Of a DNA stretch of 64,000 bases, positions 7,574-60,527 are shown piece after piece (within the stretch, counting starts at the first letter, position 1; each line of letters begins with the position of its first letter). The position numbers and the translations under genes are program-made. Under the pieces are notes generated by a model. That model did no database searches, was not told where the DNA came from, and saw only the letters and a program-made list of their open reading frames with translations. The DNA is taken from the IMG/VR virus record IMGVR_UViG_3300028786_000006, positions 64,001-128,000 of that record; one strand, given 5' to 3'. Origin of the DNA: a virus.

Positions 7574-8187
7574 AAGATGATGACGAAAGCGGCGAACGCC
7601 CGTCGATGAAAGCCACGCTCGGGTTGGTTGTGAACAACGACCCGCGCAGCAAGAACATCCGGGATGTCACCGACGACCTGGACCGCCTGACCCGCTCTCT
7701 CGCGGGTGATGGTATGGACATCAAGAGCTTCGGGCCTGGCCAGGACGATGACGACGAAGAGCCCCTACTGGAAGAGGCTGAGCTGGTAATTCTGGCCAAA
7801 CCGAGTTCGGTGATGGACTACCGAGAGTCTGATGTCAGCGAGGACTACCGGTACAGCCGTCAGATGCTCTATACGCTCCTCCATGAAGGAGGCTTGGCGT
7901 TGGCGTCAGCCTTACGGCTTGCGAAGCAGAGCCAGCACCCGAGGGCATTCGAGATCGTCAACAGCATGACCAATACCATGCGCGATCTCACCAAAGACCT
8001 GATGGTTCTTCAGAAAGCCTTCAACGACGTCACAGCCGGCAAGGAAGAGATGAAGAAGTTGCCGGGCGCGGTAGACGGCCAGGCGGCCTTGCCTGAACAC
8101 GAGAAGAAGATGTCAGGGACGACTGCAGACATCCTGAGGCTCGTGAAAGAAGCCCAAGGGGTGACGAGTGAGCAAAAGACAAACTGA
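7570..8187 (+). CDS. 16: Terminase small subunit gp16
   Basis: EDYRYSR and HPRAFEIV motifs; precedes gp17. Confidence 0.9.
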   Translation: MKDDDESGERPSMKATLGLVVNNDPRSKNIRDVTDDLDRLTRSLAGDGMDIKSFGPGQDDDDEEPLLEEAELVILAKPSSVMDYRESDVSEDYRYSRQMLYTLLHEGGLALASALRLAKQSQHPRAFEIVNSMTNTMRDLTKDLMVLQKAFNDVTAGKEEMKKLPGAVDGQAALPEHEKKMSGTTADILRLVKEAQGVTSEQKTN

Positions 8188-9877
8188 ATATGCGCCTTTC
8201 AAGCAGGGGTTCCCGGTAGCCGACGTCAGGCTTCCAATGGACAAGACGTACCGGGATAACCCCCAGATTAAGAAAGCTGATGTTGTCCTAGACCTGAATG
8301 AAGAACAGGTCATGGAACTCATCAAGTGCATGAACGACCCGATTTACTTCTGTCGTAACTATGTGAAGATCAGGACCACGGACGGTAAGATTCAGAACTT
8401 TGAACCTTACCCGTACCAGATCGAACTGATCAAGATGATGGTCGAATGTCGGTTCGTTGCCGCGCTGTTCGGGCGTCAGCAAGGTAAGACCACGACAGTA
8501 GGCGCGGTGATTGCCTGGTTCGGCATCTTCAACGAAAACCAGGACATGGCCATCCTCGCGAACAAGGGTGACCAGGCTCAGGAAATCGTTAGCCGTATCC
8601 AATTGGTGATCGAAAACCTTCCGTTCTTTATGCAGCCAGGTGTGCGCATCTGGAACAAACGATCCATGGAGCTCGGTAATGGCACCCGGATCTTCTCTGC
8701 TGCTACATCGGCCAGCTCCATCCGGGGCCGGTCCGTGTCCTTCCTCTATATCGACGAAGCGGCACACATCGCCAATGACATGGAATTCTATGAGTCCACC
8801 TACCCGGTAATTTCGGCTGGTGAAAACTCACGGGTGGTTATGACCACCACACCGAAGGGTGCGAGGGGGATGTTCTATCACCTCTATACCCAGGGCGAGA
8901 AAAAGCTCAACGATTACGCCACCATCAAATCGATCTGGAGCGACGTACCGGGTCGGGGTGAGAAGTGGAAGGCGACCACGCTGGCCAACATTGGCGGCAT
9001 GGCTCAGTGGCTCCAGGAATTCTGTTGTGAGTTCATCGGTTCCAGCGGCACGCTGATCAACCCTGAAGTTCTTCAGAGATTACAGTTCTCGAACCCCCTG
9101 AAAGAGTCGAAAGACGGTCACACCAAGATCTATTCTGAGGCTCGGGAAAACCGTAAGTACATCGCCATCGCTGACTGCGCCGAAGGCGTCGAGCAGGACA
9201 GTTCAGTACTCACAATCATCGATGTGGAAGAAATCCCATATCAGGTCGTGGCCAAGTACAAGAACAACAAGATCAGCCCGCTGCTGTTTCCATACACGAT
9301 TGTCAGCATGTGTAAGCAGTATGGCGGTTGCCCGGTCCTTGTCGAGTCCAACAATGACGTCGGTGGCCAGGTCACATACATCCTGAAGTACGAACTCGAA
9401 TACGAGGGAACACTGGGGTGCACGACTGACCGCAAGGGCCGTGAACTGAAGATCGGCGGGTACGGCGCCAAGCCTGGGGTCAAGACGACCCGGAAGGTCA
9501 AGAACGTTGGCTGTTCCAACCTCAAGACCCTCGTGGAAATGGACAAGCTGGTCCTTCACGACGAAGACATGCTCCAGGAACTGGGGACATTCATCGAGAA
9601 GAACAACAGCTACGAGGCCGACGACGATTGCCACGACGATTGCGTCATGACCTTGGTCCTGTTTTCGTGGTTGGTGAAACAGACATTCTTCATGGACTAT
9701 TCCAACAGCAACATCGTGACCAACCTGTATGACACCGTGGTGTCGGTAATGGATGAAGAGCTTCTTCCATTCGGGTTCATCGTCGATGCGGCTGAAGACA
9801 ACGAATCGGAATACAGAGAATACATGGGGATCAGGATCCACGAAGGTGGTTCCCTCGATGAATTCTTTCAGAACTGA
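8168..9877 (+). CDS. 17: Terminase large subunit gp17
   Basis: GRQQGKTT Walker A, YIDEAAH Walker B, TTTPKG, nuclease motifs ADCAEG and HDDCVM. Confidence 0.97.
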   Translation: MSKRQTEYAPFKQGFPVADVRLPMDKTYRDNPQIKKADVVLDLNEEQVMELIKCMNDPIYFCRNYVKIRTTDGKIQNFEPYPYQIELIKMMVECRFVAALFGRQQGKTTTVGAVIAWFGIFNENQDMAILANKGDQAQEIVSRIQLVIENLPFFMQPGVRIWNKRSMELGNGTRIFSAATSASSIRGRSVSFLYIDEAAHIANDMEFYESTYPVISAGENSRVVMTTTPKGARGMFYHLYTQGEKKLNDYATIKSIWSDVPGRGEKWKATTLANIGGMAQWLQEFCCEFIGSSGTLINPEVLQRLQFSNPLKESKDGHTKIYSEARENRKYIAIADCAEGVEQDSSVLTIIDVEEIPYQVVAKYKNNKISPLLFPYTIVSMCKQYGGCPVLVESNNDVGGQVTYILKYELEYEGTLGCTTDRKGRELKIGGYGAKPGVKTTRKVKNVGCSNLKTLVEMDKLVLHDEDMLQELGTFIEKNNSYEADDDCHDDCVMTLVLFSWLVKQTFFMDYSNSNIVTNLYDTVVSVMDEELLPFGFIVDAAEDNESEYREYMGIRIHEGGSLDEFFQN

Positions 9878-26368: not shown

Positions 26369-26698
26369 ATGGTAACGATTCAAATCGTCCCCATCATCGC
26401 GTGGCTGTTTGTACTGGCCAAAAGTGTCAGAATTATCAGCCTCTGTAAGTGCAAGGTGAACCCGAAGCGCAAGGAAGCGGCTATCATTCTCACCAGCGCA
26501 ACGGCCGCCGTGTTTTCAATCGGCCTACAGCTTGACATCATGTTCAACGGCTCTCGATACCTCGACAGCGTTGTCATAAACCGAATGATGGTCGCAGTCT
26601 TCCTGTTGTTTGCGCTTTGGGATATCTTCATTCTGAAGTACATCACTGAGACTTCCAACATCTGCGTCAGACGAAAGGAAGCCCCCTGTGAGCACTGA
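26369..26698 (+). CDS. Multi-pass membrane protein (lysis-associated?)
   Basis: Three hydrophobic segments; overlaps the holin start. Confidence 0.6.
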   Translation: MVTIQIVPIIAWLFVLAKSVRIISLCKCKVNPKRKEAAIILTSATAAVFSIGLQLDIMFNGSRYLDSVVINRMMVAVFLLFALWDIFILKYITETSNICVRRKEAPCEH

Positions 26699-27023
26699 AA
26701 CCTTGATTTTCGAACTTTCCGAGAAGGCGCAGCGCTACCTGTCGGTGGGCATCGTGTCGGCAATTGGTGGTATCGCCAGTTACCTGTACGAGCACGTGAA
26801 AGGTGAACGCGACTTCTCCTTCCTGTCGTTCCTGACCATGATCTTCCTGGCATTCTTCGTCGGTAACGTCCTGGGTGAGTTCATCCCCCACGACATGAAG
26901 TCGCGTGATGGAATCCTGATGGTCGCTGGCTTCTCGAGCTGGCCTATCCTGGACGCCCTCAAGTCCAACGGCAAAAAGATCGCCGAGGCCGTCTTCAGCC
27001 GTGTCCTCAAGATCTTCAAGTAA
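26688..27023 (+). CDS. Holin (LydA-like)
   Basis: Three TM segments, GGIASYL, AFFVG and AGF motifs, basic C-terminus. Confidence 0.7.
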   Translation: MSTETLIFELSEKAQRYLSVGIVSAIGGIASYLYEHVKGERDFSFLSFLTMIFLAFFVGNVLGEFIPHDMKSRDGILMVAGFSSWPILDALKSNGKKIAEAVFSRVLKIFK

Positions 27024-27173
27024 TAAATTCGTCAGGGGCCGCCCCGCTACGGCCCCATGAATCCTTTGAGCTACCCGAACACCAAATCGATTTACAGATC
27101 AACACCCGCCCGCTACCCTAAAGCCCAAACGCAGAGACAGATTCGATAAGGGCTCCTTGAGCCGCCCCGTGCT

Positions 27174-27201
27174 TTGCCTGGCCGCACGCCTTGAGTATAC
27201 T
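27174..27201 (+). promoter_or_regulatory. Sigma70-type early promoter
   Basis: TTGCCT-N16-TATACT. Confidence 0.7.
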
Positions 27202-27218
27202 GCGTCGACCAACATATC

Positions 27219-27524
27219 ATGGATCCTGTTATGGAAATTGAAATCCGTTCAATCGGCGTGGGCTGGAATAAGGACCGCCAAAACGAAAAGAAATGGCGTG
27301 TCAAAGTTACTGGCACAGTCAAATGCCGCGAGGCCACTGTTCAATTCACCCTCTTCAAACATCGCGGTGAGGCCAGTTCTTTGAAGTTCTCTGCGGGCCG
27401 GTTGTTTGAGGTGAACATGGCCCCTGCTTCTCGCATGGAACTTGCGCTCAAAATCAAGGCGCACTGTGAGAAGCACTTGACCGAGCAAATTCAAATCATT
27501 ATGCGCACAAGGTCTCCACTATGA
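27219..27524 (+). CDS. Hypothetical early protein
   Basis: First ORF after the promoter; coupled to the next ORF. Confidence 0.6.
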   Translation: MDPVMEIEIRSIGVGWNKDRQNEKKWRVKVTGTVKCREATVQFTLFKHRGEASSLKFSAGRLFEVNMAPASRMELALKIKAHCEKHLTEQIQIIMRTRSPL

Positions 27525-34341: not shown

Positions 34342-35325
34342 ATGGGCCTCCCAACGGATCTGAGCCTTATTACGACAAACATGACCCCAGCCAAGCTGGC
34401 CCGTGTTTGTGCCGCCCTTGACCGCGAGAGCCCCCACCGGGCGGACATCAAGTGGAACGAAACCACTGAGCTGGCCGGCTACCTCCATGCCAAATTCACT
34501 CTTCATGGCGAGACGTACACGCTGGACGAAGAGTTTGAAATGGTCAAGAGCATGTACCTGGAACCGTGTCGCCGCCAGCCGGCGGGACCGTTCATGTCGG
34601 TTGTGCGCGGTACGTCAGGCACCGGCAAGGGCACCCGCGTTTGCCAGGTGCTGGAATACCTGAAGACCAAGTTCGAACCAACCACTCTGAACTTCGAGTT
34701 CGAAGGGAAGACCAAGCAGTACGGTATCTGCTTCGAAGACCTCAAACTGATCTTCATCGGCACCACGACCAAGTCCAACAAGTCAGGTCTGTCCAGCTGG
34801 TCGTCTATGGACTACATCCATAGCACCGTGAAGAAGGCAGAAAACGCCCGGCCGATCGCCAAGTCATGGATCGAAAAGGGCTACAGCCTGGTCCTGGAAG
34901 GCGAGCCAATGATGCAGTCGGACAAGTTCCGACCGTTGTTCATGCAACCTTACTTCGGCGTCGCCCGCTTCCTGATGCCTCACTATTGGTACCAGAACCG
35001 TGAACAATATGACGAGCGCATCATGGGGCGGTCGGGTAAACTTGCTGGCGATAGTGGTTGGGGCCGCAACGAGTCGTATAAGCGAGAGTATGAACGCACC
35101 CTGGAAGAGCTTCAGGAGCTGGAGCTGGATGCTACCGGTTGCACACTGCTCCCTCACGACGCGCCCCTGGAGGGCTACGGTGCCTCACTGCTGGCATACC
35201 TTGGGCGTGCTGACCTCATTGACGAATTCGTCCGATGGACAGCTGAGAACCCAATGCTCCGGTCGATAGGCGGCGGCAACCCGCTGGCCACGACCAACAA
35301 CGTCTTCGACATCTTCGGTGCATGA
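34342..35325 (+). CDS. P-loop kinase, probable 5-hmdU DNA kinase
   Basis: VRGTSGTGKGT P-loop, VLEGE and ERIMGRSG motifs; coupled to the amino acid:DNA transferase. Confidence 0.8.
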   Translation: MGLPTDLSLITTNMTPAKLARVCAALDRESPHRADIKWNETTELAGYLHAKFTLHGETYTLDEEFEMVKSMYLEPCRRQPAGPFMSVVRGTSGTGKGTRVCQVLEYLKTKFEPTTLNFEFEGKTKQYGICFEDLKLIFIGTTTKSNKSGLSSWSSMDYIHSTVKKAENARPIAKSWIEKGYSLVLEGEPMMQSDKFRPLFMQPYFGVARFLMPHYWYQNREQYDERIMGRSGKLAGDSGWGRNESYKREYERTLEELQELELDATGCTLLPHDAPLEGYGASLLAYLGRADLIDEFVRWTAENPMLRSIGGGNPLATTNNVFDIFGA

Positions 35326-36550
35326 CATGATAGTTGAAAAGCAGTACAAACACCCGGCCCTGTCGGAGTTCATCTACCCCATCGAAAAGGGCGTGGACTA
35401 CCGGCTGAAAGAAAACCGGGCGCACCTCGCCTTTGCCTGGCAAGAAACCCTCTGCTACACCGAGGAGCACAACCAGCAGCTTCGGTTGATGCTTTGGGCC
35501 ATCGACAACCAGGACATCAGCGCCGTGCGCGCCCTGGAACAGAAGCTGTGGTGTGCGTTCCTGTGGGGTTGCTGCTACAACCTGATCGGCCCGTGGGCCA
35601 TCATGCAAGAGTACCCTGAGCCCCCACGCGGTAAGGACGGCCTGCAGCGATTCGCTGACTGGTACAACAAGAATTTCGACCGGATGCGCTTCGATACCGA
35701 CTGCCGCTACCGCAAGTCGAAAATGATCGCATGCGTGACCAGCTATGTCGAATGGCTGGAGGGTAAGGACCAGTTCGCGGCCTTCGCCCCGATCATTCAG
35801 CTGGGTAACAAGAAAGAGCAGTTCCAGCAACTATGGGACGCTTGTAACAGCTGGAAGTTCTTCGGTCGACTGAGCAACTGGAACACCATCGAGGCGATCG
35901 AGCTCGCCACCGACCACCATTACAAGATCGACATCCCATCGTTCATGTTGACGGACGTCAGTGGTTCTGAGTCCAATCGCAACGGCGCGGCCTTCCTGGC
36001 TGGTCACGACGAGCTTGTCACTAAGCACGGCAAGCGCAAGGACACTGGTGAGACCATCAGCCAGGCGGACTGTGAGAAGCTCGAAGTTTTGGCTGAAATG
36101 TACTTCCAGCAGGCCAAAGCCGACCTGGGCCACCTCAGCTTCATCAACCGTCTGAACGCCGAGACCAGCATCTTCTGTTGGTTCAAGAAGTTCTTCCGTC
36201 TGAAGTCCACCCGTTATGTGGGCTGGGATGGCGAGCGGACTTACGAAGAGCTGCAGTACATGCATCGGGAATGGCCTGAAGCCAACCTGGAGCCTCTGTG
36301 GGAAGCGCGGTATGCCCTGCTCCCAGACTTCCTGCTATGTGAACAGGCGCCCGAGGGCGAGCAGCGCGGCGTGAACAAAGCCAAGATGCCGCTGTTCTAC
36401 GAGACCGGCTTCCCCGAGCACATCTACAAGTTCCAGCGCGGTGAACGTTGGTCGTTCCCCGAAGTAATCACCACCCCGGCCCGCAAACCAGCCCTAAACA
36501 AACCGACTGTCGCGGATACCACCCACAGCCTCAACGACTTCTTCGGATAA
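35318..36550 (+). CDS. Amino acid:DNA transferase (aGPT-Pplase2 family)
   Basis: FDTDCRY.K, FGRLS, DVSGSESNRNG, ETS.FC.FKK and RYVG motifs. Confidence 0.82.
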   Translation: MHDMIVEKQYKHPALSEFIYPIEKGVDYRLKENRAHLAFAWQETLCYTEEHNQQLRLMLWAIDNQDISAVRALEQKLWCAFLWGCCYNLIGPWAIMQEYPEPPRGKDGLQRFADWYNKNFDRMRFDTDCRYRKSKMIACVTSYVEWLEGKDQFAAFAPIIQLGNKKEQFQQLWDACNSWKFFGRLSNWNTIEAIELATDHHYKIDIPSFMLTDVSGSESNRNGAAFLAGHDELVTKHGKRKDTGETISQADCEKLEVLAEMYFQQAKADLGHLSFINRLNAETSIFCWFKKFFRLKSTRYVGWDGERTYEELQYMHREWPEANLEPLWEARYALLPDFLLCEQAPEGEQRGVNKAKMPLFYETGFPEHIYKFQRGERWSFPEVITTPARKPALNKPTVADTTHSLNDFFG

Positions 36551-36553
36551 CCC

Positions 36554-36730
36554 ATGATCTACAAGAAAGACGACCGCCCGGATTGCCCGGCCTGCGGTGA
36601 CCCCCTTGACGAGACCTGCAAAGAGCTTGCCAAGGCCGGCGGTACGCACAACCACTACTGTGGTGCTGTGTACACAGTTCGTAAACTCAACAACGGTCAA
36701 TATGACGTTGCCTATGACGGGAATGCGTAA
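36554..36730 (+). CDS. Small Zn-finger protein (58 aa)
   Basis: MIYKKDDRPDCPACGD...HYCG; stop overlaps the next start. Confidence 0.6.
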   Translation: MIYKKDDRPDCPACGDPLDETCKELAKAGGTHNHYCGAVYTVRKLNNGQYDVAYDGNA

Positions 36731-37293
36731 TGAGCAAGAAGATGAAGGCGCAGCACGCGCTTATCACTGAACACTTTTCGAAGCTGGACGGTGTCCACTA
36801 CCTGCGTCTGACCGATGCGACCCTGGTCGCCAAAATGACCGATGACCAGATCCTGTCGTTCTGTGGGCATCACCTGTCTAAGCAGACAGGGCTGCCGGTG
36901 CGTGGCCTGGCGGTTGCCCCCGGCTTCCACCTGACCGCCAAGAGCATGATGTACTTCAACTTCAACTTCTTCAACACCGACGACTCGATCTCGGCAGTTG
37001 AGCTGCGCGGTAAGCTGCGTTCGAAGTTGGAACCACACCAGGCCGGCCACTACCCCGAGCTGTTCCGCTTCGGCGTGGGTAAGGCTGACTTCTTCTGGGT
37101 GGTGGGTGAAGTTGACCGCAGCACCCAGATCGTGCGCTTCTCGTACGTTGGTCACGTCGACCGCCCGGCAACCTTCTTCCGACGCATCCGGGTCAGCCGC
37201 GAAATGGCTCCTGGGCAGCTGACCAACGTACGCCAGTCGACTCACTACATCGACCCGGAATACAAGAAGCAGTATGTGTCGGAGCTGGCATAA
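36730..37293 (+). CDS. Hypothetical protein within the DNA-modification cluster
   Basis: Coupled on both sides (TAATG). Confidence 0.7.
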   Translation: MSKKMKAQHALITEHFSKLDGVHYLRLTDATLVAKMTDDQILSFCGHHLSKQTGLPVRGLAVAPGFHLTAKSMMYFNFNFFNTDDSISAVELRGKLRSKLEPHQAGHYPELFRFGVGKADFFWVVGEVDRSTQIVRFSYVGHVDRPATFFRRIRVSREMAPGQLTNVRQSTHYIDPEYKKQYVSELA

Positions 37294-38471
37294 TGCAAGG
37301 GCGCCCGGCTGATATTCGTTACAATGGCGTCCGCCCTGACAAGATCGACAACGCCAATCCGAAGCTTAACCAAAAGAACCTGGGCCGGTGCTTGGATTGG
37401 ATCGTCGAGCGCTACAAGATCCACGTGAAGAAAGACGTCCTGGGCCTACCCTCGCCCTGGACGGAAGACCCGGTACTACGGGACCACAAGTTCACGAACG
37501 TCCGGAGAGAGCACGACAGGGAGTCCAAGCACGTCATTCGTGGCATCTGCGAGAACCCATCCCTGTCGATGGAACAGAAGGTCCAAAACCTGATCATGTT
37601 CCGAATGTTCAATGTTTGGTCCACGGTCGAATTGATCGGCGGCCCCTTCACCAACTTCGGGTCGATTGACCTGGACGCGGTGCGGGCAAAGCTGAAGGTG
37701 GTTGATGGTGAGCGAGTGTTCACCAACGCCTTCAACTGCGGTGGCCTGAAGCAATGCCTGGCCTTTCCTGATCTCGATTATGTCAACCATGCGCACCAGC
37801 GCCGGGGTGGCATGATGGTCAAGGTGATGGACCTCCCGAACATGGCTGAGTCGGAAATGGACTACAAGGTAGCCCGTGACCTGGCGCAAGCTGAGCCCGA
37901 TCGGTACTCCATCGAAGGGTGGGAACCGAACATGGCGATGCGGGTGGTTCGTTACCTGAACACCTTCTTCAAGAACAACCCAAACTGGGTGTCTGAGTTC
38001 TTGATGTCGAGCACTCAGAAGGCGGCGTTCCTGAAGCTGAATGAAGTGCGAGGCATCAGCGAGTTCCTGGGTTACCAGATCTTCGTCGACTGCACGTACT
38101 GCCCGGAGTACCCGTTCAGCGAGAACGAGTTCACCATCGCCGGGCCGGGTTGTAAGATGGGCCTGGACTTCATCTTCGATGATCGCGACGGAATGACGTA
38201 CGAGGAGTGCATCTTCTGGCTCCGCGATCATCAGGAAGAGTTGCTCTGGGACTTGAAGAGTGTTCACCACTCCGAGTTCATGGACGACCAATACGTCGAA
38301 GAGCAAACGTTCAGTGTCATGTCGTGGGAAAACGTCATGTGCGAGACGAGCAAGTACATCCGCTGTATGGATGCCCTGGAACGCGGTGACAAGCCTCGCA
38401 CCAGGGTTAAGTTCAACGGCGGCGCAAGCAAAGCACCGTCAACCACCAAATCAGTGCTGGACCTCTTCTGA
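37293..38471 (+). CDS. aGPT-Pplase1-family thymidine hypermodification enzyme
   Basis: WTEDPVLRDHKFTNVRREHDR, FRMFN, FLGYQ..D, GPG and ENVMCE.SKY motifs. Confidence 0.88.
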   Translation: MQGRPADIRYNGVRPDKIDNANPKLNQKNLGRCLDWIVERYKIHVKKDVLGLPSPWTEDPVLRDHKFTNVRREHDRESKHVIRGICENPSLSMEQKVQNLIMFRMFNVWSTVELIGGPFTNFGSIDLDAVRAKLKVVDGERVFTNAFNCGGLKQCLAFPDLDYVNHAHQRRGGMMVKVMDLPNMAESEMDYKVARDLAQAEPDRYSIEGWEPNMAMRVVRYLNTFFKNNPNWVSEFLMSSTQKAAFLKLNEVRGISEFLGYQIFVDCTYCPEYPFSENEFTIAGPGCKMGLDFIFDDRDGMTYEECIFWLRDHQEELLWDLKSVHHSEFMDDQYVEEQTFSVMSWENVMCETSKYIRCMDALERGDKPRTRVKFNGGASKAPSTTKSVLDLF

Positions 38472-39469: not shown

Positions 39470-40153
39470 ATGACCCAGCAAGTAAAACTCTCCAAGGATA
39501 CTCTTGAAGTCCTCAAGATGTTCAGCACCATCAACGGTAGCCTGGCATTCAAAGCCGGCAATAAGCTGCGCACCATCTCCCCAGGCGGCGGCGCGGTCTT
39601 TGCAGAAGTTGAGATCCCGGAAGAGTTCCCGATCCCTTTCAACATCTACGAGCTGAACCGCTTCTTGAGCGTGTTGAGCCTGGCGACCATGAAAGAAGCC
39701 GTGCTCGAATTCAGCGACGACAAAAAGGTCGTGATCAAAGGCACCGGCGGCACCAAGATCAATTACTACTTCACCAGCGACTCCTTCGTCACGGCGCCGG
39801 ACCGCGAGCTGAAGCTGCCAAGTGTTGACCTCGACGTCACCCTGACCCCGGAAGTGATCGACGGTTTCATGCGTGCTGCCAGCGCCCTGGGCCACAAGAT
39901 CATGGCTTTCACCGTTCGCGGCGACGAAGCGTTCCTGGTCGGCACCAGCCCTGAGCTGGGCGATGCGTCCAACGACTACGAAGTCAGCCTGGGTACGGTT
40001 GAAGGCGCTTCTGAAGGCACCTACCGCCTGAAGATCGAGAACATCAAGCTGTTGGCCGGCGACTACCGCGTCCAAGTCTGTGCTCGCGGCATGGTGGCCT
40101 TCTCCAACGAACAGCGCAAGCTCAAGGTGTTCGTCGGTCTGGAAATGGTCTAA
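39470..40153 (+). CDS. 45: Sliding clamp gp45
   Basis: KLSKDTLEVLKMFSTIN, IYELNRFL and KLLAGDYRV motifs. Confidence 0.93.
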   Translation: MTQQVKLSKDTLEVLKMFSTINGSLAFKAGNKLRTISPGGGAVFAEVEIPEEFPIPFNIYELNRFLSVLSLATMKEAVLEFSDDKKVVIKGTGGTKINYYFTSDSFVTAPDRELKLPSVDLDVTLTPEVIDGFMRAASALGHKIMAFTVRGDEAFLVGTSPELGDASNDYEVSLGTVEGASEGTYRLKIENIKLLAGDYRVQVCARGMVAFSNEQRKLKVFVGLEMV

Positions 40154-40223
40154 TCGGCCACCCCGCTTGAAATCAGGTTGACCAACGGTTGACCTGATAC
40201 ACCCCGCTAACTTGAGGTTAAAC

Positions 40224-41174
40224 ATGTCGCAGCAAGAACACATCTGGGCTCAAAAGTACCGTCCCACCACCATCAGCGATATCATCCTGCCGGCCGGCCT
40301 GGTTAACGAACTGGCCAACTACGTCAAGGATGGCAAAGCGCCTCACCTGCTCCTCGCCAGCCGCTTGCCGGGCACCGGTAAGACCACCCTGGCCCTGGCC
40401 CTGTGTGCTGACCTGGGTGCAAACCCTCTGGTGATCAACGCCAGCCTGAACAACAGCATCGACGACATCCGCTCCAATGTGACCCAGTACGCTACCGGCG
40501 TATCCGTCATGGGCGGCCCGAAGATCGTTGTCCTGGACGAAGCCGAGCGTCTGTCCCAGGCCGCCCAAGAAGCCCTCAAAGGCATCCTCGAGGCTGTCTC
40601 CAAGAACTGCACGTTCATCCTTACGACCAACAACCCTCAGCGTATCATTGAGCCGCTGCGCGATCGTTGCATCGTCAAGGAATTCGTCTGGTCGGCCGAA
40701 GACACCACCGCCATGCGTGCCAAGATGATGCGCCGCTGCGCTGAAATCCTGACTGCTGAAGGCGTGACCTTCAAGCCGGCGGCCCTGGCCGGTGTTGTCA
40801 AGAAGCACTTCCCGAGCAACCGCCGTATCCTGAACACCCTTCAGGAATACTCGAACCAGTTCGACAAGAACATCGACGAAGGCATCCTGGGTATGCTCAA
40901 CGTGGGTGACGTTGACAACCTGCTCGAAGCCCTGGTCAAGAAGGACTTCCAGGCCGTCAAAGAGTGGTGCTCCACCAACGCAGACCAGTTGTCTGACGGC
41001 ATCTACCTCAAGCTGTTCGAAACCCTCAAGGACAGGCTGCACCCTCAATCGGTGCCGCAGTTGATCTTGACCCTGGGCGACTTCCAGCGTTTCCACGCAA
41101 CGGTCCCTGATCTGTTCATCCACAGCCTTGCGCTGATGACTACCATCATGGCCGACTGCACCTTCACCAAGTAA
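40224..41174 (+). CDS. 44: Clamp loader ATPase subunit gp44
   Basis: WAQKYRP, PGTGKTT, INAS and VLDEAE motifs. Confidence 0.95.
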   Translation: MSQQEHIWAQKYRPTTISDIILPAGLVNELANYVKDGKAPHLLLASRLPGTGKTTLALALCADLGANPLVINASLNNSIDDIRSNVTQYATGVSVMGGPKIVVLDEAERLSQAAQEALKGILEAVSKNCTFILTTNNPQRIIEPLRDRCIVKEFVWSAEDTTAMRAKMMRRCAEILTAEGVTFKPAALAGVVKKHFPSNRRILNTLQEYSNQFDKNIDEGILGMLNVGDVDNLLEALVKKDFQAVKEWCSTNADQLSDGIYLKLFETLKDRLHPQSVPQLILTLGDFQRFHATVPDLFIHSLALMTTIMADCTFTK

Positions 41175-41186
41175 GGGGCGACTGCT

Positions 41187-41603
41187 ATGGCTGACGATGG
41201 TAAAATTGGACTGTTTGATTGGCTCAACGCCTTGAACAGCTCCAAAACCGAGCTGATGGTAGACGAGGCGAGTGAGAAGTCGTTCGACCCGTTCATTATC
41301 CGCCGGGGCGTTGCCCAGAACATGGACACCGTCCTCCTCGCGCAAGAGATGAACAAACTCCACGCCCTGCCAAAGCGGATGGTGCATGACTTCTTTATGA
41401 AGGCCATCACCAGGAAGAAGCGGTACGGGAAGTGGGCAAAGAAAGAGGTGGTGGACTCGGGTATTACCGTGATCTCCGCCTACTATAAGGTCTCCATCCG
41501 GGAGGCCACCGAATACGCCAAGCTGATGACCCCAGAGCAGATCAAAGAGCTCGAAGGTCGGATGGACCAAGGCGGCCGCAAGGGCGAAAAGAGCGGCAAG
41601 TGA
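41187..41603 (+). CDS. 62: Clamp loader subunit gp62
   Basis: LFDWLNA, EMN, KKRYGKWAK and YY.VS.REA.EY motifs. Confidence 0.92.
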   Translation: MADDGKIGLFDWLNALNSSKTELMVDEASEKSFDPFIIRRGVAQNMDTVLLAQEMNKLHALPKRMVHDFFMKAITRKKRYGKWAKKEVVDSGITVISAYYKVSIREATEYAKLMTPEQIKELEGRMDQGGRKGEKSGK

Positions 41604-41623: not shown

Positions 41624-42109
41624 ATGAGCATCAAAGCAGTTGATTTGGTTAATTCGCCGTTGAGTGGCGATGAAATTTTGCCGTACATGGTCGAGGTTAG
41701 TTTGCCGACCGCCATCCAGGATGAGCGTGATGCTTTCCTGAAGATTCGTGAAACACTGACCCGCATTGGCATTGCCTCCCGTCGCGACGTCAACACCCTG
41801 TACCAAACTTGCCACATCCTGAGCAAGCGCGGCAAGTTCTACATCTGCCACTTCAAGAGCATGTTCGTGCTCGACGGTCGCGAGAACAATCTGAGCGTGA
41901 GCGACATTGCCCGCCAGAACCGCATTGCCCGCCTGTTACAAGAATGGGGCCTGCTGACCATCCTGGACCCATCCATCTGCGACGAACCCGTTGCGAGCAT
42001 GGGTAACCTGAAGGTCATCCCACACCGCGAGCGCTCTGAGTGGATTTTATCGCCAAAATATCAGATAGGCAAGAAAGGCGGCCCTAACACGCCCGGTGCA
42101 ACTTTGTAA
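41624..42109 (+). CDS. regA: Translational repressor RegA
   Basis: FLKIRETLTRIGIAS, LYQTCHIL, HFK and QNRIARLLQEWGL motifs. Confidence 0.95.
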   Translation: MSIKAVDLVNSPLSGDEILPYMVEVSLPTAIQDERDAFLKIRETLTRIGIASRRDVNTLYQTCHILSKRGKFYICHFKSMFVLDGRENNLSVSDIARQNRIARLLQEWGLLTILDPSICDEPVASMGNLKVIPHRERSEWILSPKYQIGKKGGPNTPGATL

Positions 42110-43001
42110 AATTGCACACGTCGATCTCCTTTCGACAGAACGAACAGCACACCCTGGGCCGCGAAGTAGCGGCCTGTTTCATCCGGTCTTTGGTCGCATC
42201 GCTCGCCCGCTTACCGACGAACTTCTGAATATGAGCTTCTGTCATCTTCCGGCCTTTGGCCCAACCGTCTAACCGGTATTTTTGAAGATGGCTAGCATCA
42301 ATCCTCAGATGGTCGTCACCCCGGTTAACCCAGATGGTGCCCTTGACAGCATCGGAAATATCAGACTTTGATGCAGGGTTGGATTTGATCCACCCATCGG
42401 CGAGTAGGGCATCAACTTCTTCGGGGCGTACCATGCGGCGTTCGCCAGTGGGTGATAAGACCCACACGGTGCCTTTTGCATTTGTGTTACCCATGAGACC
42501 TGGTGGTGTGCCTATTACCCAACTGTCGTCCAGGTAGGGTTGGAGGTTTTCGATCTTCACCCTCTTGGTAACCCCTCCCCTGGTTATGAACTTGCGGCCC
42601 TTGGCGGCTTCTGATAAATGGGAGAAGTCGCTGTTGCGGTGTTCGATTCTGAGCTTCTCGAACATCCTGGAATTGATCTTGTACGTGCGACCATCGCGTG
42701 TACCGGTACACATGGCCCAGAACCCGAACCGAGTGTCTCGGTTACCAGGTAACGCCCTCCACAGTATGGCGTGCGCGATGTAGTGTGCACGCGGCGACAG
42801 AGGGGCTGTGTTCCAAGGGTGTTTGGCTAAGCTGGTGAACTGAGGAAACAAGCCAGGGGCTTTGGGAAGGATGTGGTGGTTCTCTACAACGGAGGCCGCC
42901 GGCTGGGACAGGACGAACTTCAGGTAACGAATAAGGTGATGCTGATTCACTGGTACGTTGAGATCGTTGAATTGCTTGATAAAGAAATTGATGGTTTTCA
43001 T
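42084..43001 (-). mobile_element. Second free-standing HNH homing endonuclease
   Basis: ENHHILPK...WN..LSPRAHYIAH.ILW; repeated KGT.WV..G modules; terminal CxxC...H..C. Confidence 0.88.
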
Positions 43002-44210: not shown

Positions 44211-44888
44211 ATGAAGATCCTTCAGCATTCCGAAAAGAAACTGATGATTCTCATCAACGATGGAATCACCCAGTCCCAGCTGCGCGCCCAGGCCGTTGAC
44301 CTTGGTGCGCCGGTAGGGAAACAGAAACTGTCCAACCTGTTGGGTGGTCGTGTTGGTGAAGCCGATGGCTGGTCCCTGGCCCTGGCCAAACTGGACGTGG
44401 CCCCACAGCCGGCCCCACCTGCCAAGACCAAGCCAAACGCGGTGAATCCGTCTGGTACAGGCCATCCGAAACCGGAAAAGCCTTTCGCCAAGACCACTCC
44501 GGCCGGCGCGAAGCAAGACCTGAAGCTGGCGAAGACTGTCGTTTTAGGTGGGCAACAAATGCCTGAATACGACAAGGACGACACTGTTAAGGTTCTCCTG
44601 GCCATTAAAGGGTATGATATCACCCCCAAGATTGCGGCGTCTGAGACGTACGTGACCTTCCGGTTGGATACTGCCCGTGTTCAGGCGACAGTTGGTATTC
44701 GCGGCGTAACGCTGATGATCTTCCCTCTCAAGGGTCTGGACCTGAAGCACATCGACGCGGCTGAAACCGGCTGGGAAGTAAAGGCGCAATATATCAAGGT
44801 TGGTGTATTCGCCCCAGAGCAGGTTGCCTCGCAGCTTGCGTATATCAAGACTGAAGTAGAGCGGGCATCCGCTCAGACTGCAGCCTGA
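44211..44888 (+). CDS. Two-domain early protein, paralog A
   Basis: N-domain, Pro/Ala/Lys linker and C-domain; clearly similar to 45123-45842. Confidence 0.8.
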
Positions 44889-45024: not shown

Positions 45025-45052
45025 TTGCCTGCCTTGATTAATCGGGTATAAT
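45025..45052 (+). promoter_or_regulatory. Strong sigma70-type early promoter with UP-like A tracts
   Basis: TTGCCT-N16-TATAAT; A-rich 44987-45020. Confidence 0.85.
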
Positions 45053-45122
45053 GGCAACCATCGAAAGGCAAACGCCAATCGAAACAAACAGCCCCACCCC
45101 TTATAGAAGCCAAGGATTTATC

Positions 45123-45842
45123 ATGACCAACTCCAAACTCGTACATGCTGACCAAAACCTCGTTATCGAATTCAACGAGACTGTTACACAGTCGGAACTG
45201 CGCGCCAAGAGCATCGAGTTGGGCGCTCCGATTGGTAAGACCAGCCTCAGCAACCTGCTGAACGGTAAAGTGGAACAAACCGGCGGCTGGTCCCTGGTTG
45301 CCGCTGTGGCCGCTAAAGAAGGTCACGCTGACACCGCCAAAACCACGCCAGATGCCCCTTCGGCCCCGATCAACGATGCCCCGGCGCTTACCCTGGTGGT
45401 TACCCCGACCGTCGCTCCTGTCGTCGAAGAAGCCCCGGTCGTTGTCACCGCCCCTGTAGCGGCACCTGCGCCGGCTGCAGCCGCCCCGGTGGTTCAACCA
45501 AAGCCAGCCGCAGCCGCCAAGGCCTCCGCTGTTCGCTTTGAGAAAGACGCTTCCATCAAAGCCCTCATGGAACTGAACTCCTACGAGCCGGTGTTGAAAG
45601 AAGCCCCGACCGAGACCTACGTCACCCTCAAACTGGCCAAGGCCCGCATCCAGGCAACCATCGGTGTCCGTGGTGTCACCCTGATGCTCTTCCCGCTCAA
45701 AGGTCTGGTGCTTCAAGAGATCGACGCCGTCGCTACCGGTTGGAACGTCAAATCCCAGTACGCCAAGGTCGGTGTGTTCGCCCCAGAAGCTGTGGCAGCA
45801 CAACTGGTCGTCATCGAAGAAGTCATCGCCAAGTTGGTCTAA
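45123..45842 (+). CDS. Two-domain early protein, paralog B
   Basis: AAGGA RBS; shares TQS.LRA...LGAP.GK..LSNLL and ETYVT...AR.QAT.G.RGVTLM.FPLKGL with paralog A. Confidence 0.85.
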   Translation: MTNSKLVHADQNLVIEFNETVTQSELRAKSIELGAPIGKTSLSNLLNGKVEQTGGWSLVAAVAAKEGHADTAKTTPDAPSAPINDAPALTLVVTPTVAPVVEEAPVVVTAPVAAPAPAAAAPVVQPKPAAAAKASAVRFEKDASIKALMELNSYEPVLKEAPTETYVTLKLAKARIQATIGVRGVTLMLFPLKGLVLQEIDAVATGWNVKSQYAKVGVFAPEAVAAQLVVIEEVIAKLV

Positions 45843-54179: not shown

Positions 54180-55337
54180 ATGCAACCTGCGATCAATAGT
54201 ACCATCTTCGACACCCTGTCCATCAACCGTGCCAAGTCCCGTTGGGACGAGCACCTGTTCGACATGGTGCCTGTGCAAGAACTGGCCAACCCGGTAACCG
54301 GTCAAACCATGAAGTTCAAGCGTGGCGACTACTTCGCCCCCCTGGGCTACGGTGGCATCAACGGCGACAAGCTACGAGTGGCTATCCACATCCTGAGCGA
54401 GCACGCCAAGCGCGGCGGTGCCAAGTTGCTGGCCCACGGTACAGTCATGGGCTCCCCACAGTCCCCGATGGCCGCTGCAGTTGCCCGCCACTTCGACTAC
54501 AAGACCATCACCGTCCTGGGCGGCACCAAGCCTGAGACCTGCATCAAGAAAGACACCATTCAGATGGCCGCCTGGTTCGGCAGCGAGTTCGCCTTCGTGG
54601 GCAACGGCTACAACAACGTCATCCAGCCTCGTGTTCAGAAGATCCTGGCTGAGCGAGCGCCGACCGGCTTGTACCTCGAGTACGGCATCACCCTGGACCA
54701 CAACAAACACCCGGCGGCCGACATCGCAGCCTTCCATGGCATCGGTGCTGAGCAAGTACAGAACATCCCTGACGACGTCGACACCCTGGTCATCCCGTTC
54801 GGCTCGGCGAACTCCGGCACCTCCATCCTGCTGGGCCTGTGCAAGTATCCCAAGCCCAACATCAAGGAAGTGGTCCTGGTAGGCATCGGCCCCAACCGCG
54901 TACGCTTCATGCAAGAGCGCCTGGCGGTTATCGGTAAGCATCTGGGCATCGACACCGACATGTTCGACCTGACCGAGACTGACAAGGTCGAAGTGAACAA
55001 GACGGCAGACATCGCCAACTTCTTCGACGGCGGGCCGACCACGCGGGCCAAGTATTACCGCATGACCCACTATGACCTGCACTCCACCAAGTACGTTGAG
55101 TACAATGACCTGATGGAATACAACTGGAACGGCCTGGAGCTGCACCCTCGATACGAAGGCAAGGTGATGACCTACCTCCAGGAAAAGCATCCTGAACTGA
55201 TCCGCCCAACCGCGCTGTTCTGGATCGTCGGCAGCAAGCCGCGCATCGAGCCGATGCTGGCCAGTATGGGCCACGAGATCAGCGAGGAAGCCCCGACTGC
55301 AGTCGACCTGCTGACTCCGGTACAAGCGGCGGCGTAA
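54180..55337 (+). CDS. PLP-dependent enzyme (fold II) of thymidine hypermodification
   Basis: FKRGDYFAPLGYGGINGDKLR, SPQ, QVQNIPD, GSANS, HPRYEGK and FWIVG motifs. Confidence 0.88.
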   Translation: MQPAINSTIFDTLSINRAKSRWDEHLFDMVPVQELANPVTGQTMKFKRGDYFAPLGYGGINGDKLRVAIHILSEHAKRGGAKLLAHGTVMGSPQSPMAAAVARHFDYKTITVLGGTKPETCIKKDTIQMAAWFGSEFAFVGNGYNNVIQPRVQKILAERAPTGLYLEYGITLDHNKHPAADIAAFHGIGAEQVQNIPDDVDTLVIPFGSANSGTSILLGLCKYPKPNIKEVVLVGIGPNRVRFMQERLAVIGKHLGIDTDMFDLTETDKVEVNKTADIANFFDGGPTTRAKYYRMTHYDLHSTKYVEYNDLMEYNWNGLELHPRYEGKVMTYLQEKHPELIRPTALFWIVGSKPRIEPMLASMGHEISEEAPTAVDLLTPVQAAA

Positions 55338-55617: not shown

Positions 55618-56343
55618 ATGAGCACGTTATTCCGTAAGGATGCTGTACACCACCACATGTTCGACGAGCCGGACTACAGCCAGGTGGAAGCATTCATGAA
55701 CCGGGCCGGGGCTCACAAGGCCCCAATCTTGTTGTACCTGAAAGGCACCAATGGTTCAGGGAAGTCGACAATTCCGACCCTGCTCCGCGACTATGATCCT
55801 GATGCTTTTTTCGCGGTGGTGAATAACCGCAAGCTGCTGACCGTGTTCCCGTCCTTTCGCATCGTTGCCTGTGGCAAGTATGACGACAGCAACAGCAAGG
55901 GGTGCGATGCCCTGAAGGATACGGAGGAGATGATTGAGGCCCTGAAACTGGCGGCTGAACACTTCCCTGCGTACGACCTGATATTCGAGGGTATCATCCC
56001 TGCGACGATTGAAGGTCCATGGGTGCCCCGGTTACTGGAACATGCAGGGCCGTACCGGACACTGGTGCTGGGGTACATCAACATCCCAGTGGAAACCTGC
56101 ATCGAGCGTATCAAAGGCCGCAACGCGCCGGGTAAAGAGTTCAAAGAAGACCTGGTGCGCGGCAAGTACGAAGGCATGATGAAGTCGATGGAGCGCCATC
56201 ATGAGGTGTTCCCGGACATCTTGATGTACCACATCGACACCGACAAACCCAAGAACGATATGCTCTGGGACTTCTTGAACCGTTCATGGTTTGTCGGCCA
56301 CCAACCAGGCGAGGCATTGAGCCTTGCGGAGCTTGCCTCGTAA
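55618..56343 (+). CDS. Second P-loop kinase, probable 5-hmdU DNA kinase
   Basis: LKGTNGSGKST, GKY...GCD, FEG and CIERIKGRN motifs. Confidence 0.85.
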   Translation: MSTLFRKDAVHHHMFDEPDYSQVEAFMNRAGAHKAPILLYLKGTNGSGKSTIPTLLRDYDPDAFFAVVNNRKLLTVFPSFRIVACGKYDDSNSKGCDALKDTEEMIEALKLAAEHFPAYDLIFEGIIPATIEGPWVPRLLEHAGPYRTLVLGYINIPVETCIERIKGRNAPGKEFKEDLVRGKYEGMMKSMERHHEVFPDILMYHIDTDKPKNDMLWDFLNRSWFVGHQPGEALSLAELAS

Positions 56344-56444: not shown

Positions 56445-56774
56445 ATGACCCGCCACGACCCTTTGATTATGGAAGACCAACAGAAGCACGACAACAGACG
56501 CGGTAAGATCGCTCTGTCTCTCGCAGCTGCTCTAGCCATGGTAGGCGGCCCAACATCAGGGATCCCCTTCTTTGGCCCGGCACCCCGGTCCTTCCGCCCA
56601 CGCCCCCAAGCCACGCCAGAACAGATCGCGGCTGGTTTGAAGGCAAGCGCTGAAGCCAAGCTCAAGCGAGAAAAACGTCGTCTTCGTAATGTTCGCCATT
56701 CCGGAGCCTCCCCAACGCATGTCAATCCACCAATCCCTCGACTTCAATGTGATTCAGGGCAAGTCGACCTCTGA
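56445..56774 (+). CDS. Hypothetical protein
   Basis: GGAG RBS; hydrophobic stretch and basic helix; 3' end overlaps the next gene. Confidence 0.5.
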   Translation: MTRHDPLIMEDQQKHDNRRGKIALSLAAALAMVGGPTSGIPFFGPAPRSFRPRPQATPEQIAAGLKASAEAKLKREKRRLRNVRHSGASPTHVNPPIPRLQCDSGQVDL

Positions 56775-57873
56775 TACCATCTACCAGGCGTATGACGCCA
56801 TCTTGACCCGAGGCGTTGATGTTCAGACCCGCAATGGGGCCGCTCGAACAATCTTCAACGCTTTGATGTTCACCGAAAACCCACGCCACCGCCACCTGGC
56901 CCTTGAAGGCCGCAGCTCCAACATCTTCCAAATGATGGCGGAAACCCTCTGGGTGCTGTCTGGTAGCGGCCGCGTCACCGGGTTCCTTGAGTACTTCTTG
57001 CCTCGCGCTTTGAACTATTCCGACGACGGCGTAAGCTGGCGCGGCGCCTACGGCCCACGTCTGCTGCGTAACAACCAGCTCGACGCAGCGGTTGAAGCCT
57101 TCGTACAGGATGGTCTGCAAACCCGCCGGGCAATCGTGTCGATCTTCGACCCTTCCCTGGACACCCAGGACGCCCTGAAAGAAGTCTATGGTCTGGACAA
57201 CACCAAGGACTTGCCGTGCAACCTTCTGCTGAACTTCTACACCGACGCCCTGGGCCGCTTCTGTGTGAAGCTGGTTCAACGTTCTGGTGACGTGTTGTTC
57301 GGCGCCGGTAGCATCAACCCGTTTGAGTTCACGCTCATTCAAGAGCTGGTCTATCAGAAGGTTCGCCAACACTACCCAGGCCTCCAGCTCGGCCCGTTCG
57401 TTCATGACGTGACCAACCTCCACGTCTACGAGCAGTTCAAACCCCAGGCCCAAAAGGCTTGCGGTACGCCCCAGGTCGCATTGGGCCACAACACCGATCT
57501 GGCCTGCCAGGAAGCCTGGAACGTCTGCTCATTTGAAGAGCTGGCCTATACCCTGGAAGCGTTCGTTGATGCCGCCGAGGACTTCATTCGGTCCCCGAGC
57601 CGCGATACCAGCGACGCCTTTGAACGCCAGTTCGCCCTGACTGCTCAAAAGATCAACCACTCGATGGATAGCGCTGACAATCTTCTGATTGACTACGCCT
57701 TCATCACCATGCGTTACCTGCAGGCTAAATTGTTGCCTAGCGTCCTTGAACATAAGCGCATCGGCCTCTGCAAGCATGCGCCGGAAGACTTGATTTTGGC
57801 TATCAAACAATCCAAATTCAACCCTTTCGACCGAGTTATCATCTATGACGGCAGCTTCGCCTCTCTGCAGTAA
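56719..57873 (+). CDS. Thymidylate synthase-fold dUMP hydroxymethylase
   Basis: YSDDG..RGAYGPR, TRRA, DLPCN, QRSGD, N (dUMP-specifying position) and LHVY motifs; hypermodification context. Confidence 0.85.
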   Translation: MSIHQSLDFNVIQGKSTSDTIYQAYDAILTRGVDVQTRNGAARTIFNALMFTENPRHRHLALEGRSSNIFQMMAETLWVLSGSGRVTGFLEYFLPRALNYSDDGVSWRGAYGPRLLRNNQLDAAVEAFVQDGLQTRRAIVSIFDPSLDTQDALKEVYGLDNTKDLPCNLLLNFYTDALGRFCVKLVQRSGDVLFGAGSINPFEFTLIQELVYQKVRQHYPGLQLGPFVHDVTNLHVYEQFKPQAQKACGTPQVALGHNTDLACQEAWNVCSFEELAYTLEAFVDAAEDFIRSPSRDTSDAFERQFALTAQKINHSMDSADNLLIDYAFITMRYLQAKLLPSVLEHKRIGLCKHAPEDLILAIKQSKFNPFDRVIIYDGSFASLQ

Positions 57874-58486
57874 CATCGTAGCTCTCGTGGCGCGCAAGCG
57901 CTGCGGGAAGGACACCCTGGCCGATGTACTGGGCCACGAGTACGGGGCTCACAAGCTGAGCTTCAGCGACGGGGTACGGGCCATCACCAGCGACCTGTTC
58001 CCCTGGGTCCCTTCTGAGGTTCCCGACTCCATCAAGGACAACGTGGTAGACCACCCGGCAAACGTCCGGGGTCTGACCTACCGCGAAGTCTGGCGCACTG
58101 TAGACCACCTGCGAGCCAACGTCGACCCCCACCTGTTCATCAACTGGTTCCGTGACAACCAGCTGGATATGGCCGTCAAGAACCCAACCCTGTGCTTCGT
58201 TATTGCGCGGGTCAGTACTGCGGAAGAGTTCGCTCTCCTCAAGGCCCTGGGTATCAAGACCGTCCGCATCATCCGCAAGGACATGACGGGGGTCGACCTT
58301 GACCCGTTTGAAGACTATCTCAGCCAGGCTGAGGTTGATCATGAATATCTGTTCGACATTAATGACGGCACCGCGCCGTTTCTTGACTTTTTTCGCGAGG
58401 AAGTGCTTTGGAAATCCAATCAAGTGTGGCAACAACGGTCAGCCCTGACGTCGTCCTTGGGTATATGCGACGGTCGGACTACCTGA
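57845..58486 (+). CDS. Deoxynucleoside monophosphate kinase (gp1-like)
   Basis: ARKRCGKDT, SFSD and TYREV motifs. Confidence 0.8.
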   Translation: MTAASPLCSNIVALVARKRCGKDTLADVLGHEYGAHKLSFSDGVRAITSDLFPWVPSEVPDSIKDNVVDHPANVRGLTYREVWRTVDHLRANVDPHLFINWFRDNQLDMAVKNPTLCFVIARVSTAEEFALLKALGIKTVRIIRKDMTGVDLDPFEDYLSQAEVDHEYLFDINDGTAPFLDFFREEVLWKSNQVWQQRSALTSSLGICDGRTT

Positions 58487-59034
58487 ACACCCGCTACACC
58501 GGGCCGGACTGGATCGATATCGGCTGGGACAAGTTCACGGCCGCCGCCGAGACCGAATTCGTTGAGTTTCTCTCCGAAATGACCGGTGAATGGAAGTGGT
58601 ACAGCAACAACCCACGCATTCAGCGGAACAAGGCGCTGTTCGAGCTGGTTGACTGGTTCCTGTTCACCGCTTCAGCGATCCACTGCGCAAACCGCTATAT
58701 CGGCCTCGACGGCGTTGAGGATGCCCTGGTCAGCTACCAGGCGTTCGGTACTGACCCGTCTTGGTGGCCACCGAAGGACATCGGCGTCGGTAAGGTGATG
58801 GTTTGGAAGTCTGAACTGGTCGTACTGTCGGAATACGCCTCGATCTCGGTCAGCATCCAAAAGCTGGCTGTTACCCTCGACATCATGCTGGGTTACATCG
58901 GTGCCACCCCGGCCGACTTTGACCAGGCGTACGAGGAGAAATATGCGATGTGCTTGAAGCGGGTTGAGGCCGGCATCATGCGCGGCGTACCGTACGACAA
59001 GACCAAAGAAGTGTACTCGGAGATCTTGGTATGA
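58408..59034 (+). CDS. Dimeric all-alpha dUTPase/dTTPase-like protein
   Basis: EFVE...WKWY...ELVDW..F...Y.EK...R motifs; start uncertain. Confidence 0.75.
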   Translation: MEIQSSVATTVSPDVVLGYMRRSDYLNTRYTGPDWIDIGWDKFTAAAETEFVEFLSEMTGEWKWYSNNPRIQRNKALFELVDWFLFTASAIHCANRYIGLDGVEDALVSYQAFGTDPSWWPPKDIGVGKVMVWKSELVVLSEYASISVSIQKLAVTLDIMLGYIGATPADFDQAYEEKYAMCLKRVEAGIMRGVPYDKTKEVYSEILV

Positions 59035-59946: not shown

Positions 59947-60507
59947 ATGCCCAATGAAGTCCTGTTACAGTTCCGATGCGAAACCCAGGCGGCCTTCGAC
60001 GAAGTAGTCGCCAACATCAGCGAAGCGCGGGCCGGTAATCTGCGGGTCAACGTCACCTTCGAACAACAGGAAGGCGACCGCTGCGAGGTGTATGTTCCAG
60101 TGCTCGCCGAGCCGTTCCTGGCTGAACAACTTGTGACGCTCGAAAACCACGCTTTGAGTGCCGAAGGTGTTGTGCCAGAGCTTGTTCGGGCTATACTTGC
60201 CGCTCCTCCCGAAAACCCGATACTCATCGGGGAATACGTGGATTTCCTTGAGCGCAAGATAGACCACTTGATGGTCAGGTCTCTCAATCAACACACAGAG
60301 ATTCAGGACGCGCTCAACTCCACCGCTCTGTCCCTCGCCGAAATGCAAGAAGCCAACAAGCGATGCGAGGGCCTGTATGCCCACCTTGAACAACTCGGGG
60401 TCATTTGCCACTTCGATATGATCTCCAAGCTGGGCGAAGCCATGCGCCTTCACTCCGGGGAAAACCCCCTTGAAGGCTACGAAGGCCTGAATTTCAAACT
60501 CCACTGA
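59947..60507 (+). CDS. Hypothetical protein
   Basis: Tiles the region before uvsX. Confidence 0.6.
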   Translation: MPNEVLLQFRCETQAAFDEVVANISEARAGNLRVNVTFEQQEGDRCEVYVPVLAEPFLAEQLVTLENHALSAEGVVPELVRAILAAPPENPILIGEYVDFLERKIDHLMVRSLNQHTEIQDALNSTALSLAEMQEANKRCEGLYAHLEQLGVICHFDMISKLGEAMRLHSGENPLEGYEGLNFKLH

Positions 60508-60527
60508 TACAGCACCAGGAATCCTGA

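Follow-up and report, generated by a model that had tools for sequence, protein, structure and literature searches.

Sliding-clamp-binding-like peptides on the DNA hypermodification enzymes of a T4-like phage

The 64,000-nucleotide stretch analysed here (the window) comprises bases 64001–128000 of IMG/VR record IMGVR_UViG_3300028786_000006, a 162,341-bp Ackermannviridae-like, T4-like phage genome, and encodes a DNA hypermodification pathway in which four enzymes carry putative binding peptides for the phage sliding clamp gp45. The nearest named relative is Pseudomonas phage Cygsa01, with an 87% identical transferase and an identical gene order, followed by Ackermannviridae at 47–58%. The main cluster, on the plus strand like all pathway and clamp genes below, begins with a 327-residue 5-hydroxymethyldeoxyuridine (5-hmdU) DNA kinase of the ViI gp243 type (HMUD2; 34342..35325; PF18747, E 5e-83; 43.5% identity to ViI gp243), whose likely start was chosen from the Shine–Dalgarno sequence and the length of P0178, and whose C-terminus bears the clamp-type tail NVFDIFGA (35287–35325). 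The 410-residue amino acid:DNA transferase that follows (ADDT or aGPT-Pplase2, ViI gp247 type; 35318..36550; PF18724, E 3e-44; 54% identity to ViI gp247) ends in a disordered linker and the tail SLNDFFG (36515–36550), and the 392-residue aGPT-Pplase1 (HMUDK_hel, ViI gp160 type; 37293..38471; PF18723, E 1e-58; 49% identity to ViI gp160), an orphan enzyme, ends in SVLDLF (38439–38471). Between both aGPT-Pplase genes lies a gene for a 187-residue protein without a tail (36730..37293), which has an orthologue at the same place in Cygsa01, apparently recurs in contig L209 and gave no notable Pfam, PHROG or Atlas match; it is a possible pathway component. The inferred partner, gp45 (39470..40153; phrog_223, E 2.5e-57; T4/RB69 gp45 chains, E 1e-17), starts 1.0 kb downstream of aGPT-Pplase1 and is followed by the clamp loader genes gp44 (40212–41174) and gp62 (41187–41603), together 40212..41603 (PF21328, PF16790).

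The other pathway genes lie further downstream. A pyridoxal phosphate (PLP)-dependent decarboxylase of the ViI gp226 type (54180..55337; PF00291, E 3e-8; 50% identity to ViI gp226) contains the motif DIANFFD (55008–55028) in a variable internal loop. It is followed by a second 5-hmdU kinase of the ViI gp67 type (HMUD1; 55618..56343; PF18748, E 3e-50) and by a nucleotide-level enzyme (56689..57873; PF00303, phrog_3676) that, judged by its match to the thymidylate synthase family, is probably a deoxyuridine monophosphate (dUMP) hydroxymethylase; neither has a tail here. The ViI-type gene set is thus complete, with HMUD1 and HMUD2 kinases, aGPT-Pplase1 and 2, the PLP enzyme and the probable dUMP hydroxymethylase. 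In ViI, the pathway of gp243, gp247, gp160, gp226 and gp67 makes 5-(2-aminoethoxy)methyldeoxyuridine (5-NeOmdU) (PMC5889632, PMC8989533). All five genes have orthologues here, and the 44–54% identity of the four compared suggests that the product is probably 5-NeOmdU as well.

The preliminary description of this DNA had quoted peptides from the kinase, both aGPT-Pplases, the PLP enzyme and the terminase, and all are present as it gave them. Each is a short hydrophobic–acidic/aromatic peptide of the type borne by T4 gp43, gp33 and gp55, at or near the C-terminus or in a loop. A pattern fitted to the tails matches the C-terminus of 6 of the 219 called genes (the polymerase, gp33, the terminase and the three enzymes), whereas its frequency at internal positions predicts about 0.34 such matches. 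The genome's own polymerase (gp43; PF00136) ends in SVMDFFS and its gp33 (PF16805) in SLTDLFGV, and gp55 has a subterminal SIFDEFF; the first two genes lie outside the window, so that this check is independent of what the preliminary description had seen. When all 217 genes were ranked by how closely, in BLOSUM terms, their 12 C-terminal residues resemble the polymerase and gp33 tails, the three enzyme tails took ranks 1–2, 1–2 and 3–4 (nominal p 2e-6), while that of the thymidylate-synthase-family enzyme, an internal control, ranked 129–152. No tail matches the T4 consensus S/T-L-D-F-L letter for letter, and neither do gp43 and gp33 of this genome, which points to a lineage with its own variant of the motif.

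A flexible linker before the peptide had also been proposed. This holds at least for ADDT, whose AlphaFold2 model has a predicted local distance difference test (pLDDT) score above 90 in most blocks up to about residue 380, then 67, 49 and 45, and below 50 over most of residues 394–410, with a short helix on the motif at residues 405–408; in the kinase the linker is short and the support weaker. Close aGPT-Pplase1 homologues have an invariant T-T-K-S-x-x-D in the tail and a variable linker. Synonymous codons differ among the tails of the one genome, which argues for selection on the peptide and rules out a shared DNA element at the gene ends. The T4 late promoter TATAAATA does not occur within the window, where a promoter and terminator scan remained at chance level.

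In each of the three enzyme families, homologues retain a motif at the C-terminus, preceded by a variable linker, and this motif differs between lineages while being common to three unrelated proteins within a lineage. In seven lineages, the enzyme tails change motif together with the gp43 and/or gp33 tails of their own genome, and gp45 itself is only 20–46% identical between these lineages. The ViI and SFP10 polymerases have a terminal VNLLSMM plus basic residues, and their enzymes bear VNLMSLL-like tails. In the Vibrio phages K469 and 207E48.1, a polymerase extension ends in K/R-K/R-L-W, gp33 has the same motif with F, and the enzymes follow, their tails ranking 1–6 of about 200 genes. The polymerases of these two phages (K469 133511–136543; 207E48.1 68674–71703) retain an internal V-N-L-F and add a basic extension of about 28 residues with the gp33/enzyme-type motif, and hence have a tandem pair of candidate clamp motifs. 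The polymerase of contig L111 ends in TSALW, and four enzymes encoded there have ENALW-like (x-x-L-W) tails; the HMUD2 kinases of this contig are duplicated in tandem (L111:8531–9988), with a tail on both copies. In phiW-14, the motif reads LGAFF in the polymerase, LGGFA in gp33, LGGFF in kinase gp37 and LGSFF in transferase gp109; gp37 belongs to the HMUD1 family (PF18748), whose member in the window has no tail. Further variants of the co-varying motif occur in SH-Ab 15599/nACB2 and in contig L110.

Several observations adjoin this survey. HMUD1-type kinases sit in phrog_800, which is labelled 'terminase small subunit', and GenBank mislabels phiW-14 gp37 and PaMx11 gp49 likewise. The phiW-14 exonuclease gp32 (phrog_298; 26496–27356, L234:97–957) ends in the L-G-G-F-F of the polymerase and modifying enzymes and is a candidate clamp client. 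At L110:8616–11734, a T4-like genome (gp62, RegA, split polymerase) combines a TET/JBP dioxygenase, a ViI-clade transferase and a kinase, with a polymerase-like tail on the transferase only. Small proteins of unknown function bear the clamp-type end of their own genome at K469 58205–58528, 207E48.1 151252–151551, phiA8-29 67069–67290, SFP10 60114–60659 and K469 75366–75902; the first three adjoin a DNA ligase gene, whose product lacks the motif. The clamp linker has a charge of −4 to −6 in basic-tail lineages versus +1 to −3 elsewhere, but charge complementarity was set aside as evidence, the lineages being too few.

The internal motif of the PLP decarboxylase proved stronger than the preliminary description had suggested, in that its loop switches with the lineage: DIANFF here, SVSLAGLL in ViI/SFP10, TRKLF in K469 and TKKLW in contig L227. 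The K469 and 207E48.1 proteomes, each of about 48–50,000 residues, contain just seven occurrences of the fitted motif apiece, among them gp33, the three tails and the PLP loop. The terminase large subunit (8168..9877, plus strand) behaves differently. Its end, SLDEFFQN, matches the motif only in the Cygsa01-like lineage; orthologue ends differ (DEWFKN in SFP10, DWMNS in Vibrio) and rank 117–199 in SFP10, phiA8-29 and two Vibrio genomes. The tail follows a pattern of its own and does not co-vary, so the terminase, which had been listed with the enzymes, has low odds of being a clamp client and is not counted in the system.

Phages without a clamp provide the reverse comparison. Only three T4-like records of the 42 IMG/VR records searched have gp45, and 19 records that are at least 90% complete lack it, absence being judged with one profile (phrog_223) that a very divergent clamp could escape. 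A union pattern, which combines all lineage patterns and was fitted on the positives, recognises 24 of the 27 enzymes that nine clamp-encoding genomes provide; its rate among all genes is 3%, and it matches none of the 54 transferase, kinase and aGPT-Pplase1 homologues in the 19 near-complete genomes without gp45, where the transferases mostly end at the domain boundary. The tail is likewise missing from ViI-clade transferases of small TET/ParB phages, which are 40–43% identical to that of the window and have no clamp gene within 10 kb. On the unrooted transferase tree, the tail requires at least two changes, with one change sufficing in 0% of bootstrap trees. In a record that is 59% complete and has no gp45, a single transferase (L198, about 10001–10804) ends in Q-L-E-L-L, a possible host β-clamp motif.

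With ESMFold2, we modelled a complex of the gp45 trimer and the 31 C-terminal residues of ADDT. The complex scored 0.62 and the best of three controls 0.00; of 80 solved pairs, 58 reach the mark applied, as do 2 of 110 mismatched ones. Across runs, contact agreement was at least 67% and partner pLDDT at least 49. The tail contacts one gp45 subunit at residues 36–44, the interdomain linker (110–117) and the C-terminal residues 221–226, with the motif Leu as anchor, a region that we take to be the canonical clamp pocket. Since clamp–peptide structures of RB69 and T4 exist, the placement, obtained for the ADDT tail alone, may reflect likeness to solved complexes and demonstrates such likeness rather than binding.

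Taken with the sequence comparisons, these data make it very probable that four enzymes of the pathway bind gp45 through the putative clamp peptides, as the preliminary description had proposed: the motifs co-vary with those of gp43 and gp33, are kept in clamp-encoding relatives and are absent from phages without a clamp. In the mechanism we propose, gp44/62 would load gp45 onto new 5-hmdU DNA, and the peptides, C-terminal in the kinase, transferase and aGPT-Pplase1 and in an internal loop in the PLP decarboxylase, would dock on flexible tethers in the hydrophobic gp45 pocket also used by gp43, gp33 and gp55. The kinase, transferase, decarboxylase and aGPT-Pplase1 could exchange on the three pockets of the clamp, as T4 ligase and polymerase do (PMC6212786). 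Tethering to the clamp would raise their local concentration, speed the finding of sites and hand on the 5-phosphomethyldeoxyuridine (5-PmdU) and serinyl intermediates, so that new DNA would be modified soon after synthesis.

Several points weigh against this interpretation. The purified enzymes are active without gp45 (PMC8989533), and the enzyme set of SH-Ab 15599 modifies the Escherichia coli chromosome (PMC13458397); the clamp is therefore not needed for catalysis, and its predicted role is accessory. The same observations leave unsupported the proposal that the clamp restricts modification to phage DNA, for which the 5-hmdU substrate suffices and is the better explanation. Binding of gp45 by gp43 and gp33 in these phages is itself inferred from T4. 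The enzymes of Aeromonas phage phiA8-29 match gp33 and not the polymerase, while those of Kutterviruses match the polymerase and not gp33, so that two motif classes coexist. The tail is missing from aGPT-Pplase1 in the Acinetobacter phages SH-Ab 15599 and nACB2, as it is from the HMUD1 kinase in ViI-like phages. The lineages are few and the motif patterns were fitted after the fact; as related genomes do not count separately, the effective sample amounts to about seven lineages. The one comparable earlier claim is contested. Binding of T4 α-glucosyltransferase to gp45 (Sommer 2004, PMID 15381072, as cited in PMC6024577) embodies the same idea of a post-replicative modifier on the clamp, in another pathway, but it was not reproduced in vitro or in vivo, though with C-terminal His tags (10.64898/2025.12.06.692756); this enzyme has no LDFL-type end. 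The distance of about 1 kb between cluster and gp45, which had been offered as support, is correct for this genome, but the proximity is not conserved: the cluster adjoins the polymerase gene in SFP10, phiA8-29 and K469, and aGPT-Pplase1 lies far off in Kutterviruses.

Where on the DNA the clamp would be met is less certain than the binding. Coupling of hypermodification to replication and new DNA, with a link to the fork rather than to clamps left on DNA, is in our estimate slightly favoured. The strongest competitor, to which we give roughly one chance in three, accepts the binding and differs in timing alone: the peptides would mainly engage clamps left away from the fork, in the late-transcription pool of gp33 and gp55, as a general processivity platform before packaging. 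It is supported by the phiA8-29 enzyme tails, which resemble gp33 rather than the polymerase, by the two attachment sites of T4 gp45 and its action in late transcription (PMC2988020), and by virion DNA that lacks residual 5-hmdU, which requires only completion before packaging (PMC8989533). Against it, the enzymes of Kutterviruses, Miltonvirus-like phages and L111 have tails that resemble the polymerase end, and the Vibrio polymerase bears the enzyme-type motif as a terminal extension. The fuller version of the fork-linked interpretation is tentative and in our judgement a little short of even. In this version, the clamp trimer would carry the entire multi-step pathway like a toolbelt immediately behind the fork; the docking code would be specific to each lineage, evolve jointly with the clamp and be gained anew whenever a clamp-encoding phage takes up modifying enzymes.

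It is improbable that the tails serve as degrons or bind another shared phage partner, for instance a scaffold or one another within a modification complex. Two motif classes do coexist in some genomes and small unknown proteins bear motifs too, but gp45 is the only known partner common to gp43, gp33 and gp55 (PMC2988020, PMC9690074). Moreover, an internal loop cannot be a C-terminal degron, and the nucleotide-level enzymes of the pathway have no motif. Binding to the host β-clamp through a QL[SD]LF-like motif is less probable still. One tail here ends in L-D-L-F, which resembles the bacterial β-clamp motif; however, the tails lack Gln at position 1 and vary by phage lineage, differing radically among phages of Salmonella, Vibrio, Aeromonas and Pseudomonas, in which the β pocket is conserved, and yet tracking the phage gp43 and gp33. 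The phages without gp45, which would profit most from β, are also without tails. Although short hydrophobic–acidic ends are not rare and the terminase here fits the pattern without co-varying, a coincidental likeness, or a DNA element common to the gene ends, has a negligible probability, being already largely refuted by the ranks, the co-variation across unrelated folds, the internal-loop case and the synonymous divergence.

The preferred interpretation, binding to gp45, relates these enzymes to several known systems. The gp43, gp33 and gp55 epitopes of T4 and RB69 (PMC2988020; RB69 clamp–peptide structure 1B8H) are likewise short hydrophobic–acidic–aromatic peptides on a variable linker, and the enzymes share their motif with the genome's own gp43, gp33 and gp55; the model places the ADDT tail in a similar pocket. 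Here, in contrast, the peptides are carried by base-modifying enzymes, and across lineages the motifs drift from LDFL to K/R-K/R-L-W, V-N-L-L and L-G-x-F-F types; being off the T4 consensus, they are best described as putative lineage variants rather than proven members. The internal loop of the PLP decarboxylase recalls that of T4 DNA ligase (PDB 6DRT), an enzyme of another class, whose gp45 motif lies in a variable loop, is dispensable for catalysis and binds with a Kd of 10.7 uM (PMC6212786); the PLP loop is likely dispensable as well. Pattern scans found no clamp-type motif in the ligases of the present phages. DNMT1, brought to new DNA by PCNA through its PCNA-interacting-peptide (PIP) box (PMC9690074), is also a base-modifying enzyme on a sliding clamp, but it is a single enzyme of eukaryotic maintenance methylation, whereas four enzymes of a multi-step phage pathway are concerned here. 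The ViI pathway papers (PMC5889632, PMC8989533) do not mention the clamp, although the ViI proteins themselves bear the motif. The preliminary description knew of no account of clamp binding for this pathway, and we found none in the literature searched, subscription journals being outside its coverage.

Two further loci of the window lie downstream of the clamp genes. On the minus strand after RegA (42084–43001), a 305-residue gene resembles homing endonucleases, with an HNH-like start and repeated basic modules, and has no Pfam match; Cygsa01 has a minus-strand gene at the matching position and L209 has none there. Adjacent paralogous genes (44211–44888 and 45051–45842) lie upstream of the primase and are paired in L209 too.

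Thymine hypermodification is called post-replicative, and clamp binding would address the question of how it can keep up with replication and leave virion DNA free of 5-hmdU. With T4 α-glucosyltransferase, the sole phage modifier for which the clamp had been invoked before, the claim is contested, and the motifs allow a direct test on already purified proteins, namely ViI gp243, gp247 and gp226 and phiW-14 gp37 and gp109. If the peptides bind as proposed, clamp-free reconstitutions may have missed an accessory factor, the tail would identify the orphan aGPT-Pplase1 as one of the DNA-acting enzymes of the pathway, and a genome's own gp43/gp33 tail could serve as a search key for further clamp clients.

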